Assembly (NCBI GenBank): GCA_963783305.1
Contig: CAWAMW010000002.1
Coordinates: 480,001-544,000 of the forward strand
Direction: 5' to 3'
DNA: 64,000 nucleotides
Source: an uncultured Gemmatimonadales bacterium
Lineage (GTDB): Bacteria; Gemmatimonadota; Gemmatimonadetes; Longimicrobiales; RSA9
The notes under the pieces were generated by a model. The model worked only from the letters and a program-made list of their open reading frames with translations, searched no databases and was not told the origin of the DNA. Of this stretch, positions 21,034 to 35,487 are shown in pieces. Numbering within the stretch: the stretch's first letter is position 1; every line of letters begins with the position of its first letter. Both the position numbers and the translations under genes were made by a program.

Positions 21034-21774
21034 ATGGGCACGACACTGCTGGAACCACTGGCCAACGCGGCGCAGCCGTGGGCGGATCTGTATGGCGACT
21101 CGACGCTCCTCCAGACGGGCATCCTGTTCGTGCACTTCGCCGGTCTCCTCGTGGCGGGCGGGTTCGCGGTGGCGTCGGACCGACTGGCGCTGCGGGTGGG
21201 ACTGGAGGACGGGCCGGGGCGGGAGACGGTGCTGCGGGAGCTCCACGCGGTGCACCGACCGGTCCTGATCGGGCTCGTTGTGGTGACGCTCACAGGGATC
21301 GCCATGGCGCTGGCCGACGCGCGCTACCTCCTTACCTCCCTGGTCTTCTGGCTGAAAATGGGAGCGTTCGGCGCGCTGCTGGTGAACGGGCTGTTCATGA
21401 TGCGGGCGGAGCGGCGGCTCCGGGGTGCGGCGAAAAAAGAGCGGGCCGAGCGGCTGGCCGCGCCTCTGGCGTCGTGGCCCCCGCTGCGTGTGGCCCGGGG
21501 CGGGGCCGCCGCGGGTCCTGACTTCTTCCTGGCGCCGGACTCGGTGCGGCCGCCCCTCGGACTGGTCCAACCGGACGGGCCGGCGGCGCCGGCACCCGGA
21601 GGCTGGGCGGGAATGGCGGTCCGAAGGGCCGGCCGGACGGAAGAAGGATACGTGGTGGACCGGCGAGCGTCGACGGATCGTTCCCCGTGGCGGAGCCTGC
21701 GTCTGGCGGCGCTCCGGAGCATGGGATTGTGGCTGCTGACGCTCCTGCTTGGCACCGCGCTGACGGCGATTTGA
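21034..21774 (+). CDS. DUF6644/CopD-like membrane protein with a long low-complexity loop
   Basis: FVHFAGL, TLTG..M, VFWLKM, N, and terminal SMGLWLLTLLLG. Confidence 0.6.
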   Translation: MGTTLLEPLANAAQPWADLYGDSTLLQTGILFVHFAGLLVAGGFAVASDRLALRVGLEDGPGRETVLRELHAVHRPVLIGLVVVTLTGIAMALADARYLLTSLVFWLKMGAFGALLVNGLFMMRAERRLRGAAKKERAERLAAPLASWPPLRVARGGAAAGPDFFLAPDSVRPPLGLVQPDGPAAPAPGGWAGMAVRRAGRTEEGYVVDRRASTDRSPWRSLRLAALRSMGLWLLTLLLGTALTAI

Positions 21775-21784
21775 GGGAGGAAGC

Positions 21785-22405
21785 ATGAAGAAGTTCGAGG
21801 ATGTGGGACCGGGTGGCCGTCGGAGCGAGCCGGGCGACGGGGAAACGGACGGGGCTGCGGAGGGAAGTGCGTGCTCGGGCTGTGGCGTCTGCGAGGACCC
21901 GCCGGGGTCGCGGCGCGAGTTCCTCCGGCAGGGAGCGCTGGCGCTTGCGCTGCTGGCGGGCACGCGACTGCCGCTGGTCGCCTCGGCATCGGGCATCCGG
22001 TTCGGCGCCGGTGGCGGCCGGGGCGGCGGTGTGACGTACGACGTCCCGGGGGAGGACGGAGCCACGATCGACCGGAGGAACCAGGTGATCCTGGTCCGGT
22101 GGGAGGGGAAGGTCTACGCGTTCGGGCTGTCGTGCCCGCATCAGCGGACGGTGCTGCGATGGGAGGAGGATGACGGTCGGTTCCAGTGCCCCAAGCATCA
22201 CTCGAAATACGCCGCGGACGGCCGCTACCTCGAGGGCCGTGCCACGCGGAGCATGGACCGGTATGCACTGCGGCTGGATGCGGGGCGGGTAATCGTGGAC
22301 ACGGGGCGTCTCTACCACGAGGATGATGACCCGGCGGAGTGGGAGGCCGCCGTCGTCGTCCTCGCGGGCGGAGCGCCGGCGACAGGAGATGGCCATGGGG
22401 TGTGA
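21785..22405 (+). CDS. Tat-exported Rieske [2Fe-2S] protein
   Basis: SRREFL; CPHQ...FQCPKHHS. Confidence 0.9.
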   Translation: MKKFEDVGPGGRRSEPGDGETDGAAEGSACSGCGVCEDPPGSRREFLRQGALALALLAGTRLPLVASASGIRFGAGGGRGGGVTYDVPGEDGATIDRRNQVILVRWEGKVYAFGLSCPHQRTVLRWEEDDGRFQCPKHHSKYAADGRYLEGRATRSMDRYALRLDAGRVIVDTGRLYHEDDDPAEWEAAVVVLAGGAPATGDGHGV

Positions 22406-22841
22406 GGGATGCGGCATGAGTCGACGCGGGTTCGTGGAGCGCGCCACCCTGGTAGCGGTGGCGGCGGTGCTGACGGGGTGCGACCTGTCCAGCCCGACGG
22501 GGGTGGGCGTCCCGACGGGGGGCCCGTACCAGGTCCGGCTGTCCGACTATCCGGCGCTGGCGGACATCGGCGGGGTAGCCCGGGTCCAGCTGGACGACGG
22601 GTCGGTGGTGGGCGTGGGCCGAACGGGGGTGAGCTCCTTCGAGGCGTACGGCCTCGCCTGCACGCACGAGGGCACCCAGGTCAGGGTCCAGGGCGACGGC
22701 TGGCACTGCCCGAGCCACGGGGCCGAATTCGACACCGCGGGCGGCGTCACCCGCGGGCCCGCCAACCGGGCGCTGGTGTCGGTGCCTTGTACGTACGACG
22801 CGGCGACCGGCACGCTGACGGTGAACGGCGACCCGGCGTAG
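22395..22841 (+). CDS. Tat-exported Rieske [2Fe-2S] lipoprotein
   Basis: SRRGFV, lipobox LTGC; CTHEG...CPSHGAEF. Confidence 0.9.
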   Translation: MGCEGCGMSRRGFVERATLVAVAAVLTGCDLSSPTGVGVPTGGPYQVRLSDYPALADIGGVARVQLDDGSVVGVGRTGVSSFEAYGLACTHEGTQVRVQGDGWHCPSHGAEFDTAGGVTRGPANRALVSVPCTYDAATGTLTVNGDPA

Positions 22842-27655: not shown

Positions 27656-29578
27656 ATGAGAATAGGGACGGACGGATCGGGACGGGGCCTGCTGACGGTC
27701 CTGGCACTGGTAGTGGGAGGAACGTTCCTGGGGGCCGGTGTCCGATGGCGGGGGATGGAAGCGTCGGGAGCGGAGGCCGCTGCGGTCACTGCGGTATCGC
27801 AGGACCCAGGGGCGGTCTTCGCCGTGTTGCCGGACCAGATGCCGGGCGCCGAGGAGGACACCCCGGAGCTGGTGGAGCTCGGGCGTAAACTGTATTTCGA
27901 GACGGCGTTCTCGGGCGACGGATCCATGTCGTGCAACACCTGCCACCGGATCGACGAGGAGCTGGCGGGGACGGACTATCAGAGGACGTCGAAGGGGGTC
28001 CGCGGCAACATGGGGCCGCGCAACTCGCCGACCACGCTGAACGCCGGGTACCAGATGGGCCAGTTCTGGGACGCCCGGGCCAGGGACCTCCAGGAGCAGG
28101 CGGGCGGCCCTCCCCTTAATCCCATCGAGATGGCCATGCCCGACTCGGCGGCCGCCGAGAACGCGCTCGGGGCCCTCCCCCACTACCGTGAAGCCTTCGC
28201 GGCGGCGTTCCCCGGCGAGGCTCAGCCGGTCACATTCACGAACATGACGCGCGCCATAGCGGCCTTCGAGCGGACGCTGCGTACGCCCGCTCGGCTGGAC
28301 GCGTACCTGGAGGGCGACCATGGCGCGCTCACCGAGGCGGAGATCCGAGGGATGCAGACCTACGTGGACGTGGGCTGCGCTACCTGCCACCGGGGCGCGC
28401 TCCTGGGCGGTGACCGCATGATGAAGATGGGGCAGGTCCACGCCTACACCTGGAGCGACGACCAGGGGGCGGGCGGCCAGATGTTCAAGGTGCCCCAGCT
28501 GCGCAACGTCACCCTGACACCGCCCTACTTCCACGACGGGCAGGCGGAGACCATCGCGGAAGCGGTGGACCGGATGGCATGGCTCCAGCTCGGTCGAGAG
28601 CTGGAGCGGGACGAGATGCTCGACATCCTGCGCTTCCTGACCGCCACGGCCGACGTGGAGCGAACGGTGGAGGACTCCTGGCCCGAGGAGGGCTGGTGGC
28701 AGCCGCGCTCGCCCCGCACCGTCCCCGAGGGTGAGGCCGCCTACGGTCTGCGCCTGCTGACAGAGACCCCCGAGCTTCTGGGCCTCGACGACGGGACGGC
28801 CGGACACGCGGTGGGCAACGACCTGAGCTGCACCAGCTGTCACCAGGATCAGGGTGTGAAGCGCTACGGGATGCCATGGGTCGGTGTCACCGACCGCTAC
28901 CCGACGTTCCGGGGCCGCTCGGGTGCTGTGGCGGGGCTCGACGCCCGGATCAACGGGTGCATGGAGCGCAGCATGAACGGCCAGCCCATCGATCCCGACA
29001 GCCGCGAGATGAAGGCCATGCAGGCCTACTTCGCCTGGCTGTCGGAGAGCGTGCCGGAAGACCTCGAGGGCGCGGGCACGCCCGAATTCGACCGCCCGGA
29101 GCGGCGCGCGGACCTGGAGGCAGGCCGCGTTGTCTACACGGGCAAATGCCACTCGTGCCACGGACCCCACGGCACCGGGTACGAGAACCGGGCGGGGCGG
29201 GTGATCGTGCCACCGCTCTGGGGCGACCGCAGCTACAACGAGGGTGCGGGCATGACGCGCACCCTCACGGCCGCGCCGTTCATCCAGGCGAACATGCCCC
29301 TGGGCACACCGTTCAACCGGCCGACGCTCAGCGCGGAAGAGGCCTATGACGTGGCCGCGTTCATGAACTCGCACGAGCGGCCCATCAAGGTCAGGAAGAA
29401 CACCGATTACCCGAACCTGCTGGACAAGCCGATCGACGCGCCATACCCGCCGTACGCCGACGACTACCCGGTGGATCAGCACCGATTCGGGCCGTTCGGG
29501 CCCATCGAGCGGGCGCACGAGCGGATGAAGCAGCGGACGGACAGCGTCCCGAACCCGTACGTGGAGAAGGGCCGCTAG
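27656..29578 (+). CDS. Tetraheme fusion: cytochrome c peroxidase (CCP/MauG) domain plus TsdA-like thiosulfate dehydrogenase domain
   Basis: N half: CNTCH, NSPT, QFWD, NPIEM, CATCH, FKVP.LRN..TPPYFHDG. C half: CTSCH, RINGCMERSMNG, CHSCHG, PPLWG..SYN.GAGM, NMP. Confidence 0.9.
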   Translation: MRIGTDGSGRGLLTVLALVVGGTFLGAGVRWRGMEASGAEAAAVTAVSQDPGAVFAVLPDQMPGAEEDTPELVELGRKLYFETAFSGDGSMSCNTCHRIDEELAGTDYQRTSKGVRGNMGPRNSPTTLNAGYQMGQFWDARARDLQEQAGGPPLNPIEMAMPDSAAAENALGALPHYREAFAAAFPGEAQPVTFTNMTRAIAAFERTLRTPARLDAYLEGDHGALTEAEIRGMQTYVDVGCATCHRGALLGGDRMMKMGQVHAYTWSDDQGAGGQMFKVPQLRNVTLTPPYFHDGQAETIAEAVDRMAWLQLGRELERDEMLDILRFLTATADVERTVEDSWPEEGWWQPRSPRTVPEGEAAYGLRLLTETPELLGLDDGTAGHAVGNDLSCTSCHQDQGVKRYGMPWVGVTDRYPTFRGRSGAVAGLDARINGCMERSMNGQPIDPDSREMKAMQAYFAWLSESVPEDLEGAGTPEFDRPERRADLEAGRVVYTGKCHSCHGPHGTGYENRAGRVIVPPLWGDRSYNEGAGMTRTLTAAPFIQANMPLGTPFNRPTLSAEEAYDVAAFMNSHERPIKVRKNTDYPNLLDKPIDAPYPPYADDYPVDQHRFGPFGPIERAHERMKQRTDSVPNPYVEKGR

Positions 29579-29684
29579 CCACGATGATCCAGCGCCAGCG
29601 CCCCGGGCTCGCCTTTGCGGGTCCGGGGCGCCGGTCCTCGTCGGGGATGGATCGAGCGGAGTCCGAAGCGCGGGCGGGTGCCGT

Positions 29685-29924
29685 CTACCACTTCTGCCCG
29701 TGACACGAGTAGCAAGACGGCTCCCCGTTCGTTCCGCCTTGCAGATCCGCGCCGTGGCACGCGGTGCAATTGGCCGTGGGGTCCTCCAGGCCCGGCCTGT
29801 GCGCCACACCGTCCTTGTTCACCGTGTGACCTTGCGGCGCGTCGGGCGGGAGCGTGGGATCCTCACCGCACCCGACGAGTCCCCCACCGAGCACCAACGC
29901 CAGAGTCAGGAGTAACACGCGCAC
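29685..29924 (-). CDS. Very small diheme c-type cytochrome lipoprotein
   Basis: GTG start at 29924 with GGAGG RBS; lipobox LVGC; CTACH and CYSCH plus two additional His. Confidence 0.85.
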   Translation of the reverse strand: MRVLLLTLALVLGGGLVGCGEDPTLPPDAPQGHTVNKDGVAHRPGLEDPTANCTACHGADLQGGTNGEPSCYSCHGQKW

Positions 29925-30007: not shown

Positions 30008-31060
30008 TCAGTCCGTGGCCAGCCCTGGCGACTCCACGGACCGCGGCAGCACCGGCTCGTTGATATAGTCGAACGGCACCCGGCCCGTCAGCGAGCGCAG
30101 CCACGCGGTGATGTCGGCGACCTGCGCGTCGTCCAGCTCAACTCCGAGCTGATGGCGCCCCATCAGCCGCACCGCGTCCTGGAGCCGCTGAACCGACCCG
30201 TCATGGAAGTACGGCCACGTCTCTTCGATGTTGCGCAGCGACGGCACCTTGAATACCTGGTGGTCCGCTTCGTCGCCCGTGACCGCAAAGCGGCCGTCGT
30301 CCTCGCTCGAGAACCACGGCTTTACCAGCCCGGCCTTCCGGTATGTGCTGCCGCCCACGTACGCGCCGGTGTGGCACGTCCCGCAGCCCACCTGCGCGTA
30401 CGTTTCGAAGCCCTTCTTCTCCTGGTCGCTCAGCGCACCCTCGTCGCCGCCCAGGTAGGCGTCCCAACGCGACGGCGTGACGAGCCCGCGCTCGAACGCA
30501 CCGATGGCACGGCCGAAATTCTCGAACGTCACCGGTCCCGCCTCACCCGGGAACGCTGCGCGGAACGCCTCGACGTAGCCCGGAATCCCATTCAGCACGG
30601 TGACGACATCGTCACCCGTCGACATCCCCATCTCGACGGGGTTCAGCACCGGGCCCAGCGCCTGCGCCTCCACGTCCGGCGCGCGGCCGTCCCAGAACTG
30701 CGAGACGTGGCCCGCGGCGTTGTAGACGGTCGGCTCGTTGCGCCCGCCCATCGAGCCATCGTGGCCGACACCGGTGCGGCGGTGGCTCGTGCCGTAGTCG
30801 TGCAGCGGGTGGCAGACGTAGCAGGAAACGTCACCGCTCGCCGAGACGCGCGTGTCGTAATACAGCATCCGGCCGAGTGCGACCTTCTCGGCGGTGGCCG
30901 GGTTCTCACCGGACGCCATCGTCTCCGGCAGCGGCGCAAAGCTGGCGAGCAGCCCGGGATCGATGCCCGCCTGCGTCGGCCGCGGCGCTTCCCTCGTGTC
31001 CCCGCCGCACGCGCTGACGAGCACGTACAGCGCGATCGTCCCGATCTTCAGCGTCTTCAT
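30008..31060 (-). CDS. ccp: Diheme cytochrome c peroxidase (lipoprotein)
   Basis: CYVCH, GVGH, NEPTVYN, QFWDGRA, NPVEMGM, CGTCH, FKVPSLRN, MGRHQLG. Confidence 0.93.
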   Translation of the reverse strand: MKTLKIGTIALYVLVSACGGDTREAPRPTQAGIDPGLLASFAPLPETMASGENPATAEKVALGRMLYYDTRVSASGDVSCYVCHPLHDYGTSHRRTGVGHDGSMGGRNEPTVYNAAGHVSQFWDGRAPDVEAQALGPVLNPVEMGMSTGDDVVTVLNGIPGYVEAFRAAFPGEAGPVTFENFGRAIGAFERGLVTPSRWDAYLGGDEGALSDQEKKGFETYAQVGCGTCHTGAYVGGSTYRKAGLVKPWFSSEDDGRFAVTGDEADHQVFKVPSLRNIEETWPYFHDGSVQRLQDAVRLMGRHQLGVELDDAQVADITAWLRSLTGRVPFDYINEPVLPRSVESPGLATD

Positions 31061-31412: not shown

Positions 31413-32138
31413 ATGCGAACGAACACGGGGCGGGGTCTGATGATCGCGGTCGCGATGATAGTGTGGTTGGGTATGGCCGGGCACGGATCGGCGGCCGCCC
31501 AGACCACAGGCCGCACGATCGTGATGGAGGGCAACGGGCGCGGCGCGCAGGCATGCGAAACGTGCCACGGCATCACGGGTGCGGGCCAGCCGGCCATGGG
31601 GGCTCCCCGCCTCTCGATCCTCTCGGCGAGCTATATGACGGCTCAGCTCGAGGCGTTTCGACAAGGAACGCGGGAGAACCCGCTGATGACGCCCACCGCC
31701 AAGGCGTTGAACCAGGAGGAGAGCCGCGCCGTTGCCGAGTACTACGCCGGGGTGAGCGGAGACACGAGCGGGGACCCCGGTCCGGGCACCGTGCCCGACT
31801 CCATCACTGGCGACCGGGCGCTGGGAGAGCGTCTCGTCCGGCAGGGTGACTGGAGCCGGACGATCCCACCGTGCATGAGCTGCCACGGCCCTGGCGCGGC
31901 GGGGGTGGACCCCGGCTTCCCGGGGCTCGCCGGGCAGGACGCGGGCTACCTTTTGGGTCAGCTCCGCTCCTGGCGGGAGGGCCAGCGCAGCGGCGACCCA
32001 CTGGCTCTCATGGGCACCATCGCGAAGCGGCTCACGGAGGAGGATTCCCGAGGGGTGGCGGTGTACCTGGCCAGTCTCGTCCCGGCGGGTGGGGGTGCCT
32101 CGGACAACGGCGACGGCGCCACGGGAGGCCCGCGATGA
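31413..32138 (+). CDS. tsdB: Diheme c4-type cytochrome, TsdB-like electron acceptor
   Basis: CETCH and CMSCH, c4 motifs (P.L....Y...QL..F...R.N..M); ATGA overlap with tsdA. Confidence 0.8.
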   Translation: MRTNTGRGLMIAVAMIVWLGMAGHGSAAAQTTGRTIVMEGNGRGAQACETCHGITGAGQPAMGAPRLSILSASYMTAQLEAFRQGTRENPLMTPTAKALNQEESRAVAEYYAGVSGDTSGDPGPGTVPDSITGDRALGERLVRQGDWSRTIPPCMSCHGPGAAGVDPGFPGLAGQDAGYLLGQLRSWREGQRSGDPLALMGTIAKRLTEEDSRGVAVYLASLVPAGGGASDNGDGATGGPR

Positions 32139-33019
32139 GGGCCGGCAGAGGGACGGCGGTCGCTCTGGGGCTCGGGTTGCTTCTCGCGCTCACGGGGTGC
32201 GGCGATGCCGGAGACGAGGGGGCGGCGGCATCCGCAGAGGGCGTGGGCACCGGCGACGTCGCCTTCACCCCGCCCTCCGAGGACAGCATCCCGGACGGCC
32301 CCTACGGCGACATGGTCCGCCAGGGCCGGGACCTGTTCGTGAACACCCAGCAGCTGAAGGGCACGTACGTGGCCAACGACCTGTCGTGCGGGAACTGTCA
32401 CCTCGGCGGCGGCCGGCTGCGGAATTCGGCGCCCTTGTGGGCCGCGTTCCCCATGTACCCCGCCTACCGCGGCAAGAACGACAGGGTCAATACCATGACC
32501 GACCGGATCCAGGGGTGCTTCCGCTACAGCATGGACGGGACCCCGCCACCGGCCGACAGCGACGTCATGACCGCTCTCCTCACGTACATGGGATGGATGT
32601 CACGGGGTGCGCCCGTGGGCGAGGCGCTCCCGGGACGCGGCTACCCGGAGCTCGACGACCCGGCCCGCAGCCCCGACCCGACGCGGGGCGCCGAGGTCTA
32701 CGCCGCGAAGTGCGCGCTGTGCCACGGAGAAGACGGGCTGGGCCGCAGCTCGGCCGACGGCACGGTGGTCTTCCCTCCACTCTGGGGGGACGCCTCGTTC
32801 AACTGGGGCGCCGGCATGCACCGGATCAACACAGCCGCGGCGTTCATCATGGCCAATATGCCGTTCAGCCAGCCGGGCACACTGACCGAGGAGCAGGCGT
32901 GGGACGTGGCCGCGTTCGTGAATGGCCACGACCGGCCCGAGGATCCGCGTTTCACCGGTAGTGTGGCGCGCACGGACAGCCTCTTCCACGACCACATGTG
33001 CCGGTACGGGGAGCGCTGA
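32135..33019 (+). CDS. tsdA: Thiosulfate dehydrogenase/tetrathionate reductase TsdA (lipoprotein)
   Basis: CGNCH, RIQGCFRYSM (active-site Cys), CALCH, PPLWG..SFNWGAGM, NMP. Confidence 0.88.
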   Translation: MRAGRGTAVALGLGLLLALTGCGDAGDEGAAASAEGVGTGDVAFTPPSEDSIPDGPYGDMVRQGRDLFVNTQQLKGTYVANDLSCGNCHLGGGRLRNSAPLWAAFPMYPAYRGKNDRVNTMTDRIQGCFRYSMDGTPPPADSDVMTALLTYMGWMSRGAPVGEALPGRGYPELDDPARSPDPTRGAEVYAAKCALCHGEDGLGRSSADGTVVFPPLWGDASFNWGAGMHRINTAAAFIMANMPFSQPGTLTEEQAWDVAAFVNGHDRPEDPRFTGSVARTDSLFHDHMCRYGER

Positions 33020-33359: not shown

Positions 33360-33610
33360 TACGAAGCCGTGGCGGCCTCGGCAGCCAGCAGCTTCTTCAC
33401 CTGCTCGACGGACAGCAGGTGTCCCGATGACTTCACGTCACCGTCCACCGCCAGGGCCGGCGTCATGGCCACGCCCATCCGGGCGATGTCCTTGATCTTC
33501 TCCACCTTCTCGATCTCGGCGGCCAGGCCGAGCTCGGCGATGGCCTTTTCGGCGTTGGCCGTGAGGGCCTTGCACTTGGGACAGCCGGTTCCGAGGATCT
33601 GCACCTTCAT
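33359..33610 (-). CDS. Small thioredoxin-like protein (MTH895/TM0996 type)
   Basis: MKVQILGTGCPKC...TPALAVDG. Confidence 0.9.
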   Translation of the reverse strand: MKVQILGTGCPKCKALTANAEKAIAELGLAAEIEKVEKIKDIARMGVAMTPALAVDGDVKSSGHLLSVEQVKKLLAAEAATAS

Positions 33611-33659
33611 GGTCATTCTCCGTGCGTGGGTATCGTATGTGGGCTCAGCCACGACCGCC

Positions 33660-35072
33660 TCAGACGATCGCGCCGTAGATCATCCCGGCCGTCGTAGCCA
33701 TGACGATCGTGAGGGCCAGGAAGGCCAGCGTCTTCTTCGTGCCGATGAAGCTCCGGATCACCAGAATGCTCGGGAGCGAGAGCGCCGGGCCGGCGAGGAG
33801 CAGGGTCAGGGCGGGACCGTCACCCATCCCGGCGCCCATGAGACCCTGGAGGATCGGCACCTCCGTTAGGGTGGCGAAGTACATGAACGCGCCCGCCACG
33901 GAGGCGAACAGGTTCGCGCCCAGCGAGTTCCCGCCTACGGCCTCCGCCACCCACGCCGACGGGATCAGCCCTTCATGGCCGGGGCGCCCCAGGAGCATCC
34001 CGGCGATCAGGATCCCGATGAACAGGAGCGGGAAGATCTGCTTCGCGAACCCCCACGACGCGTCGAACCACTCCCCCGCCTCGCCCCCGCTGGTGCTGGC
34101 GGCGATGGACAGCCCCACGGTGGCCGCGCCAAACGCGATCAGCGGCTCGTGGGGGAAGAGGAGGGCGAGGGCGGCGGTCACCACCGTTGTCGCCCCGACC
34201 TCGAGGGCGCTCATGCGGATCCAGCGCACCAGCGCATACGCCAGGACGAGCCCGGAGGCGGCCGTGATCTTCCACTTGGCGCCGTAGAGCGCGAACCAGA
34301 AGCCTTCCGTGGTGTCGGGCGCGCCCCAGTTGGCGAATACGAGCACGGCCACCATGGCGCCGAAGAAGGTGGCGGTCTGCCAGAGGGGGCGAGCGTCACC
34401 GGCGTCGTCGTCCGGCCCCACCATCCACTGGCGCGACCGCTCCAGCTCCGAGCGCCGGAAGATCAGGTGCATGAGCAGGCCGATCATCAGCGCGAAGACC
34501 ACGGCGCCCACCGCGCGCGCGATTCCGATCTCCACGCCCAGCACGTTCGCCGTCAGAACAATGGCCAGCACGTTGATGGCCGGACCCGAGTAGAGGAACG
34601 CCGACGCGGGGCCCAGGCCGGCACCATTCGCGTAGATTCCGCCGAAGAGGGGCAGCACCGTGCACGAGCAGACCGCCAGCAGCGTCCCCGAGACCGAGGC
34701 CACACCATAGGCGACAGGCTTCGGCGCCGTCGGGCCCAGGTATTTCAGCACCGCCTGCTGACTCAGGAACACCGATATGGCGCCAGCGATGAAGAACGCC
34801 GGCACCAGGCACAGCAGCACGTGCTCCTGCGCGTACCACTTCGTCAGCGCCAGCGCCTCGGTCACCGCGCTATCGAAGCGGGCGTTCCCCACCGGGAGGA
34901 AGTAGAAGACGAGGAAGACGCCGGCGATCCACGCCAGCGGCTTCCATTCCGAGCCCCAGTCCGTGGCGCCCGGCTCCGCTCGCCGCCGCGCCCACCACTG
35001 CGCCAGAGGGCGGCTCAGCGACGCACCAGCCCCCACCGCAGCCCGCTCCTCAACCCGCCCCCGCACGCTCAT
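33660..35072 (-). CDS. DUF318/ArsP-like permease
   Basis: HVLLCLVPAFFIAGAI, AVCSCTVLP, FLYSGPAIN, MYFATLTEVP. Confidence 0.88.
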   Translation of the reverse strand: MSVRGRVEERAAVGAGASLSRPLAQWWARRRAEPGATDWGSEWKPLAWIAGVFLVFYFLPVGNARFDSAVTEALALTKWYAQEHVLLCLVPAFFIAGAISVFLSQQAVLKYLGPTAPKPVAYGVASVSGTLLAVCSCTVLPLFGGIYANGAGLGPASAFLYSGPAINVLAIVLTANVLGVEIGIARAVGAVVFALMIGLLMHLIFRRSELERSRQWMVGPDDDAGDARPLWQTATFFGAMVAVLVFANWGAPDTTEGFWFALYGAKWKITAASGLVLAYALVRWIRMSALEVGATTVVTAALALLFPHEPLIAFGAATVGLSIAASTSGGEAGEWFDASWGFAKQIFPLLFIGILIAGMLLGRPGHEGLIPSAWVAEAVGGNSLGANLFASVAGAFMYFATLTEVPILQGLMGAGMGDGPALTLLLAGPALSLPSILVIRSFIGTKKTLAFLALTIVMATTAGMIYGAIV

Positions 35073-35085
35073 CGCTGACCCCTCC

Positions 35086-35487
35086 TCACCGGACCGCTGA
35101 CGCCATATCGCCCGACCGATCGCTGCGCCGGGCCGCGTCCTCCGCCGACCGCCCTTCGGCTCTCGCGGACCGGATCCTGACCAGCAGCGGCGCTGAATCC
35201 GGCAGAGGACGATTCGCCAGCAGCCCCCGGAGCAGGACCAGGATCGCCGACAGGTCCCCATCCGGAACCCGCGGCAACCGGTAGTTCACGATCAGCCCGT
35301 CCCGCTCGTCCTCCAGCACCCCGGCGTCCCGCAGGTACCGCAGGTGCCGCGAGGCCTTCGGCTGTGTGATCCCCAGGATCTGCTCCACCTCGCAGACGCA
35401 CAGGGATTCGTGCCGGAAGATGAGCCCCATGATCCGGAGCCGGGTCTCGTTCGACAGCGCCTTGAAGATCTGGTCCAGACGTCGCAT
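35086..35487 (-). CDS. arsR: ArsR/SmtB family repressor
   Basis: FKALSNETRLRI...LCVCE...SRHLRYLRDAG; heads the permease-thioredoxin operon. Confidence 0.92.
   Translation of the reverse strand: MRRLDQIFKALSNETRLRIMGLIFRHESLCVCEVEQILGITQPKASRHLRYLRDAGVLEDERDGLIVNYRLPRVPDGDLSAILVLLRGLLANRPLPDSAPLLVRIRSARAEGRSAEDAARRSDRSGDMASAVR

Follow-up and report, generated by a model that had tools for sequence, protein, structure and literature searches.

In a window of 64,000 nucleotides from an uncultured Gemmatimonadales bacterium (the whole stretch of DNA that was analysed; contig CAWAMW010000002.1, positions 480,001 to 544,000), one gene encodes a four-heme protein, P0001, in which a diheme bacterial peroxidase is joined to a thiosulfate dehydrogenase (TsdA). 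We read this protein as a periplasmic thiosulfate:hydrogen peroxide (H2O2) oxidoreductase with internal electron transfer and no partner protein, and assign to this reading a probability of roughly 0.6. Internal coupling is suggested indirectly by the retention of both active sites, by the occurrence of such fusions in both domain orders and by a predicted interface at the exit heme of TsdA.

The gene (27656..29578, + strand) is open throughout and forms a single uninterrupted frame of 640 residues with CxxCH motifs at residues 93, 241, 392 and 498. The preliminary description of this DNA had claimed such a frame, and all of the motifs that it listed for the two diheme domains are present in the sequence. 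Pfam searches identified CCP_MauG at residues 71-222 (E 4.8e-55), SoxA-TsdA at residues 389-466 (E 2.5e-14) and a cytochrome c domain at residues 488-573. Among solved structures, residues 54-333 resemble bacterial peroxidases (Neisseria gonorrhoeae 6fu3, E 1.6e-62), and residues 368-578 match TsdA of Allochromatium vinosum (4wq7, E 5.4e-42) far better than SoxA (1h31, only E 1e-4), in agreement with the earlier assignment of this half to TsdA. The peroxidase domain (residues 50-333, 27803..28654, +) was delimited by alignment to 6fu3 and 6qkn and has a fold match of Z 30.9; the TsdA domain (residues 348-615, 28697..29500, +) was delimited by alignment to 4wq7, 4wqc and 5lo9, with a fold match of Z about 25. 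The linker between them (residues 334-347, 28655..28696, +) contains no stop or signal peptide. As also described before, no internal signal peptide was detected at the junction by hydropathy (15-residue window), which reached only 0.8 within residues 300-400, compared to a maximum of 2.24 at residues 11-12. The latter belong to an N-terminal hydrophobic segment (residues 11-29, 27686..27742, +) previously called an anchor; the segment is there, but it fits a cleaved export signal as well as an uncleaved anchor. The fused protein is predicted from its sequence to be exported to the periplasm. The GC content at third codon positions is 0.91, equal in the peroxidase and TsdA halves.

Other identities were considered for each half and rejected. 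For the C-terminal half, the SoxA model TIGR04484 scored 76.3 bits, below its cut-off of 110; SoxA has SoxX and SoxYZ as partners, and neither SoxY nor SoxB was found in the 96%-complete genome. For the N-terminal half, the MauG model gave 111.6 bits (cut-off 443.85) and the MbnH model 140.5 bits (cut-off 362.85). Tyr-His ligation of the six-coordinate heme is described for MauG, MbnH and BthA (PMC6405878), and in P0001 a Tyr ligand was not found, Met307 aligning with the canonical Met. TsdB was likewise rejected, as Pfam reports CCP_MauG and the sequence match to 5lo9 covers only residues 349-607.

The junction between the two halves is genuine. It is bridged by assembled contigs (not raw reads) from three DNA runs: a contig of run X1 spans 28605-28844, junction included, with 0 differences, and contigs of runs X2 (28365-29579, 83 differences) and X4 (27818-29570, 191 differences) each span it in one piece. 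The X1 contig is identical and its run may be the source sample, whereas those of X2 and X4 come from relatives; runs X2-X4 hold small shares of the words and were not used for naming a habitat. In the RNA run X3, short contigs of a relative lie over the gene, including 28667-28820; contigs say nothing of transcription and these were left unused. An assembly artefact or read-through is ruled out by the bridging contigs together with 90 other protein clusters of the same architecture that match across the junction.

These clusters came from a homolog search with residues 200-480 as query, which gave 423 matches among 6947 candidates. Among the best 120 of the 423, the top 90 carried the TsdA Pfam domain with 73-100% query cover, and the other 30 were peroxidase-only. 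The family alignment therefore has 91 rows, the 90 clusters plus the query. Four CxxCH motifs were found in 82 of the 91 rows, the remainder being mostly fragments, and all 12 ligand or catalytic residues checked are kept in 75 of the 82 four-heme members; six of the seven exceptions are without Trp138 and the seventh has a broken end. The linker of these forward fusions, counted between anchor columns, is 20-25 residues long in 88/91 rows. Many host labels are Desulfobacterota, and among the names are Desulfobacter, Desulfobulbus, Desulforhopalus, Desulfoprunum, Desulfuromonadaceae, Syntrophales, Smithella, Kiritimatiellia, Planctomycetota, Parasphingorhabdus and Longimicrobiales; most rows have no organism label, and those taken from metagenome bins may be mislabelled. 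In the closest Atlas cluster (176 members), Thermodesulfobacteriota are commonest.

Closer to the source, the fusion is rare. A full-length match was found in one of 41 related genomes and, among the matches listed, a junction-spanning match in one of 401 genomes of the phylum (a tally that includes the unpublished G187), with five weaker matches; in both cases the one was the source genome itself. A scan of a genome collection with the single protein returned 21 stand-alone tsdA loci and no fusion, a metagenome scan at least three fused loci among 80 loci, and a plasmid search no peroxidase-TsdA junction among the best 15 of 224 matches. In the databases, the fusion proteins are labelled either 'cytochrome c peroxidase' or 'thiosulfate dehydrogenase', each label covering one domain only, so that a survey of either function would count them wrongly. 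The preliminary description knew of no such fusion, and none was found described in full-text searches of a largely open-access literature. The proteins form a conserved four-heme fusion family that has apparently not been described previously; the new element is the peroxidase-TsdA architecture, both component families being already known.

In the peroxidase half, alignment to the N. gonorrhoeae enzyme places the P heme at C93-H97 and the E heme at C241-H245 with Met307 as ligand. Residues W138, Q148, E158, N123, T288, P290 and M307 correspond to W98, Q108, E118, N83, T261, P263 and M280 of that enzyme, where Asn, Thr and Pro belong to the calcium site, Trp is the relay, Gln and Glu act in catalysis and Met binds the E heme (PMC10094543). 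These classical features are thus all present, together with the motifs of both hemes. Gln148 and Glu158 are found in 85 of 85 ungapped rows and Met307 in 91 of 91.

The distal His of classical enzymes is absent, as stated earlier from the SKGV motif in comparison with GVGH in the stand-alone peroxidase nearby (30008-31060): Val115 stands at the column of His75 of the N. gonorrhoeae enzyme. None of the 84 ungapped family rows has His at this column, which holds Ala in 79 and Val in only three, the Val being confined to the subclade of P0001; three members have His one position further on. The distal His is present in only 27 of 94 stand-alone peroxidases selected for their resemblance to the family profile, and many stand-alone diheme enzymes (L025-L101) carry SPGA, SLGV, SEGD or other motifs in place of this residue, outside the usual two-class scheme. 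The likeness to E. coli YhjA claimed before holds letter for letter, the latter (9qdt) having TSIGVGG and QAGGPPLNPIEMA, with GV common to both proteins, but it does not hold as a family trait or a sign of descent, given that Val is so rare in the family. Descent from YhjA is supported neither by the distal column nor by the peroxidase tree presented below, among whose rows YhjA does not figure. With the distal His gone, the P heme likely stays open. The loss of this residue was correctly observed, but it is not by itself proof of independence from reductive activation, because the Nitrosomonas europaea enzyme (1iqc) retains the His on sequence comparison and yet needs no such activation (PMC10094543). 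The structural model of P0001 fits open peroxidase structures (Z about 31) better than closed ones (Z 22-25); as bias of the model may explain this difference, it was given no weight.

P0001 and four relatives (P0002, P0003, P0004 and P0009) are 7-8 residues shorter than most of the family between the E-heme motif and FKVP, an interval that has its commonest length in 73 of the 91 rows. The shortening maps to residues 269-276 (28460..28483, +). Taken with the absent distal His in the same subclade, it would agree with a peroxidase domain that serves as a TsdB-like acceptor towards the respiratory chain, peroxide reduction being minor or lost in P0001. TsdB-TsdA fusions are known (PMC6879331, PMC9774590), and Trp138 is replaced in six family members. 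Nevertheless, this explanation is very improbable: Gln148 and Glu158 are invariant, the calcium ligands are retained, third codon positions account for 18 of the 27 listed differences in the peroxidase half (related contigs, best-supported rows only), and the genome already has, 2 kb away, a likely tsdB-tsdA pair.

In the TsdA half, heme 1 (C392-H396) is accompanied by Cys435, Arg431, Arg438 and Ser439, and heme 2 (C498-H502) by Asn546-Met547. The motif RINGCMERS aligns with RIGDCFERS of 4wq7, and Asn546-Met547 with Lys208-Met209 of the A. vinosum enzyme. Cys435, Arg431 and Arg438 are present in 91/91 rows and the Met in 87 of 88 ungapped rows; in TsdA, the Cys is the heme-1 ligand, the Met the heme-2 ligand, and heme 2 the electron-transfer heme (PMC6879331). 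The fold matches 4v2k with Z 25.2 and a root-mean-square deviation of 1.7 A over 220 residues (VIA).

The Asn that precedes the heme-2 Met also occurs in the enzymes of Campylobacter jejuni and Marichromatium purpuratum. As C. jejuni TsdA works in both directions at similar rates in vitro (PMC5146829), the direction of the reaction cannot be read from Asn-Met. The fused protein could also be a terminal reductase with two acceptors, in which a quinol-linked cytochrome would supply electrons to H2O2 or tetrathionate and thiosulfate oxidation would be a side reaction. This is unlikely, although the Asn-Met pair is that of C. jejuni, the nearest Atlas cluster is mostly Thermodesulfobacteriota, family members occur in Desulfobacter, Desulfobulbus, Desulfoprunum, Syntrophales and Smithella, and YhjA uses H2O2 as an anoxic acceptor (PMC10301912). 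The source genome also fits here: of its four molybdoenzyme matches, the three that were scanned resemble Fdh, Nap and QrcB, and for none of them was the best match of the Ttr or Phs type. On the other side, M. purpuratum TsdBA is also Asn-Met, the C. jejuni enzyme is bidirectional, and the modelled heme-2 motif faces the peroxidase domain, as would suit internal transfer. With H2O2 present, the driving force would favour thiosulfate oxidation, judged from the potential of the H2O2/H2O couple given below. The two-acceptor and the coupled modes could both run, in turn.

The whole chain was modelled with AlphaFold2 from a 75-row alignment, with a mean local confidence (pLDDT) of 82.3 and a predicted template modelling score of 0.83; confidence was low at residues 122-138 and 341-345. 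Fold searches with the model recovered both the peroxidase and TsdA families. When the two domains were modelled as separate chains with four hemes, the complex scored 0.85, compared to 0.00 for the best of three controls. Among solved complexes, 116 of 157 attain this mark, and among mismatched pairs 2 of 215; the figures serve as a rough guide only, the hemes having been added here. The runs agreed in at least 98% of contacts, with partner pLDDT of at least 92. TsdA contributes residues 492-518 and 548-552 to the interface, among them 499-504 in the heme-2 motif. The peroxidase contributes residues 285-290, 298-305 and 315-329, of which those within 285-305 are next to Met307, with some contact at 101-108 and 226-229. 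The TsdA heme-2 (exit-heme) domain is thus predicted to dock on the E-heme domain of the peroxidase and, as it is heme 2 that transfers electrons in TsdA, this geometry would point the right way for internal transfer. No solved peroxidase-TsdA complex was found in the structure searches; likeness to TsdBA could have helped the score. The VIA alignment to 5lo9 was not read as a shared docking geometry: it begins at model residue 227, but the 251 residues aligned amount to about the TsdA part alone.

Fusion-specific residues were enriched at the interface in a set thinned to 23 fusions below 70% identity (5/22 vs 11/142, p 0.044; 4/18 vs 6/165, p 0.0096), in tests that are partly circular and ignore shared descent. 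They include Asp305, Ala301, Tyr509, Thr551 and Pro552. The peroxidase side of the interface is also more conserved overall (p 0.014), a test with the same limits. Both the fusion-specific interface and the short forward linker argue against a mere tether for joint export or regulation, in which each enzyme would keep separate partners and the peroxidase might mainly shield the TsdA cysteine from peroxide. Such tethering seems decidedly improbable, even if unfused tsdA and peroxidase genes lie close together in the window and in 3/21 stand-alone tsdA loci, all three closely related, and one reverse-order fusion has a linker of about 40 residues and a His-bearing peroxidase. None of 77 stand-alone peroxidase loci contained tsdA, so co-location of the two genes is not general.

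Fusions in the reverse order (TsdA-peroxidase), identified by a profile search of 50% representatives, fall into two groups, P0157/P0300-P0303 and P0158/P0422. P0157 has four relatives with 80-87% identity across the junction, one of them on a 702-kb contig; a second member is known for the P0158 group, and P0158 itself sits on a 3.39-Mb contig. All 10 reverse sequences examined have four CxxCH motifs, the Cys motif of TsdA, and Gln/Glu in the peroxidase part. In one of the groups, the peroxidase bears the distal His and heme 2 has Lys-Met; the other has no distal His.

In a quick tree of TsdA domains (94 rows), the 30 forward fusions lay on one side of a branch with support 99, and both reverse groups stood apart, among stand-alone enzymes. 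In a FastTree tree of peroxidase domains (84 rows), 22 forward rows and one stand-alone row formed a branch with support 97; the P0157 group fell within the His-bearing stand-alone enzymes (support 99-100) and P0158 elsewhere. The forward rows had been chosen by hand out of 108, fusion fragments were left out of the TsdA tree, and rooting was at the midpoint. Three separate origins of the fusion are likely from these trees. There is, in our estimate, a somewhat better than even chance that the proteins make up a third class of bacterial heme peroxidases, namely four-heme, partner-free thiosulfate:H2O2 oxidoreductases that arose at least three times.

Other joined proteins were also observed. 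P0156 and P0163 have the peroxidase joined to only the heme-2 half of TsdA, and P0155 to a TsdA without Arg438/Ser439; in all three, the docking heme may have been kept as a plain electron carrier, or they may be assembly errors. P0270 (569 residues, only two CxxCH motifs) combines a polytopic membrane domain, which by eye we take to be TauE-like, with a TsdA.

In the coupled reaction proposed, two thiosulfate molecules would be oxidised to tetrathionate at Cys435/heme 1, and the two electrons would pass from heme 1 to heme 2 (His502/Met547) and on to the E heme (His245/Met307), from which Trp138 would relay them to the P heme. There, Glu158 and Gln148 would act on H2O2, one molecule being reduced to water with both electrons. 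The H2O2/H2O couple lies at about +1.3 V. The potentials of relatives fit the proposed path, at +198 mV for thiosulfate/tetrathionate (PMC9562282), +172 mV for heme 2 of C. jejuni TsdA (PMC6879331) and +210 mV for the E heme of YhjA (PMC10301912). The role of the protein would be the removal of peroxide at oxic-anoxic interfaces, where thiosulfate and H2O2 are both present, with the quinol pool spared.

Several points weigh against this coupled function. Many of the named hosts belong to groups of anaerobes, for which tetrathionate would be an acceptor. Because the complex model was built on the fused-chain alignment, it and the conservation data are not independent lines of evidence. On its TsdA side, the interface was not more conserved overall than other variable positions (p 0.65). 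Within P0001, residues 122-138 of the P-heme region have pLDDT below 50 in the AlphaFold2 model, and the 8-residue loop common in relatives is missing from a region that moves upon activation (PMC10094543). The Asn-Met arrangement is shared with the C. jejuni enzyme, which in vivo acts as a tetrathionate reductase (PMC5146829, PMC6879331). The SoxB-like neighbours of foreign fused genes, presented next, score under the cut-off, occur in two of the three foreign loci and have no counterpart found in the source genome.

Of these three foreign fused loci, L022 and L023 have a SoxB-like gene downstream (L022:5998-7464 and L023:2133-3764). Both encode metallophosphoesterases with TIGR04486 as best match, at 356 and 260 bits against a cut-off of 550; a route with TsdA and SoxB has been described (PMC9774590). 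L022 also carries desulfoferrodoxin-like (superoxide-reductase-like), WrbA and catalase-like genes, and the third locus is near a RuBisCO gene. The SoxB-like genes and the oxidative-stress genes of L022 would suit the coupled reading, but three loci are too few for calling the neighbourhood conserved. In L023, the SoxB-like gene is followed by a gene of 152 codons with no NCBIfam match.

In the window, four further genes lie within 3.5 kb downstream of the fused gene. A small predicted lipoprotein of 79 residues with two CxxCH motifs and no Pfam family (29685..29924, - strand) stands directly downstream of the His-bearing stand-alone peroxidase (30008..31060, -), which is 48% identical to the fused domain. 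A diheme cytochrome c (31413..32138, +), likely TsdB from its position and two class I heme domains, is directly upstream of a stand-alone TsdA (32135..33019, +) that is 42% identical to the fused domain and belongs to another branch of the tree. At only 48% and 42% identity, these neighbours are not the source from which the fusion arose. The 96%-complete genome contains cytochrome c assembly genes and KatG, and no monofunctional catalase was found in it. A scan for promoters and terminators gave nothing above shuffled sequence.

Further genes were noted in the window and elsewhere. A close relative of the 30008-31060 peroxidase, also stand-alone and His-bearing, is encoded at G000:C15:453413-454387. 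Adjoining tsdA at 33362-35487 (-) are an ArsR-like regulator (by eye), an ArsP permease and a small thioredoxin-domain gene. At 21034-22838 (+), a DUF6644/DUF2214-like membrane gene is followed by two small Rieske proteins, with a sigma-54-type two-component pair (minus strand, labelled from sequence) downstream. In the closely related loci L001, L003 and L004 (the last labelled Pseudohongiella), tsdA is near a peroxidase-domain gene of 575-600 codons. In L004 (3025-9978), tsdA comes after a cbb3-like oxidase fusion of 885 residues, labelled by eye, and between it and the peroxidase gene stands the gene of a Tat-type protein that matches NF052225 weakly.

Two kinds of bacterial heme peroxidase are described (PMC10301912): diheme enzymes, which receive electrons from soluble donors, and triheme enzymes, for which the donor is quinol. 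In the fused protein, the part that would supply the electrons is an enzyme in its own right, and the two-electron stoichiometries of the halves match. If coupled, they would directly link the sulfur cycle with peroxide defence and make thiosulfate oxidation worthwhile for sulfate reducers and syntrophs, pulses of tetrathionate being predicted on exposure to oxygen. The thiosulfate/tetrathionate pool would then be an external redox buffer against peroxide for anaerobes and microaerophiles, and in sulfate-reducing communities the fusion would produce tetrathionate enzymatically.

Of the known systems, stand-alone TsdA (A. vinosum, C. jejuni) shares the diheme fold, Cys435 (Cys96/Cys138) and Met547 (Met209/Met255), whereas the fused protein has Asn at the A. 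vinosum Lys208, a peroxidase partner and the fusion-specific Tyr509. TsdBA of M. purpuratum (5lo9) has, like P0001, four c hemes, an electron-accepting diheme module at the N terminus and a C-terminal TsdA with active-site Cys and Asn-Met. However, the N-terminal module of the fused protein is a CCP_MauG domain with its catalytic site and not a TsdB carrier, and its putative sink is H2O2 instead of a respiratory or photosynthetic chain.

Classical peroxidases (6fu3, 2vhd of Pseudomonas aeruginosa, 1iqc) have in common with P0001 the fold, heme motifs, Trp relay, Gln/Glu, calcium site and Met ligand. They differ in combining only two hemes with a separate soluble donor, a cytochrome or cupredoxin (class definition in PMC10301912). 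The fused protein carries TsdA instead of such a donor and has four CxxCH motifs in one chain; it also lacks the distal His and has a shorter loop in its subclade. YhjA of E. coli and the triheme quinol peroxidases (9qdt, Z 29.3) share the His-less core and a heme module that feeds the E heme. In P0001, in contrast, there is no N-terminal heme domain, the first CxxCH (residue 93) being that of the P heme and 9qdt aligning only from its own residue 122 on; the distal position in the family of P0001 is mostly Ala, not Val; and the added module stands at the C terminus, carries two hemes and is an enzyme too, whose donor would be thiosulfate and not quinol.

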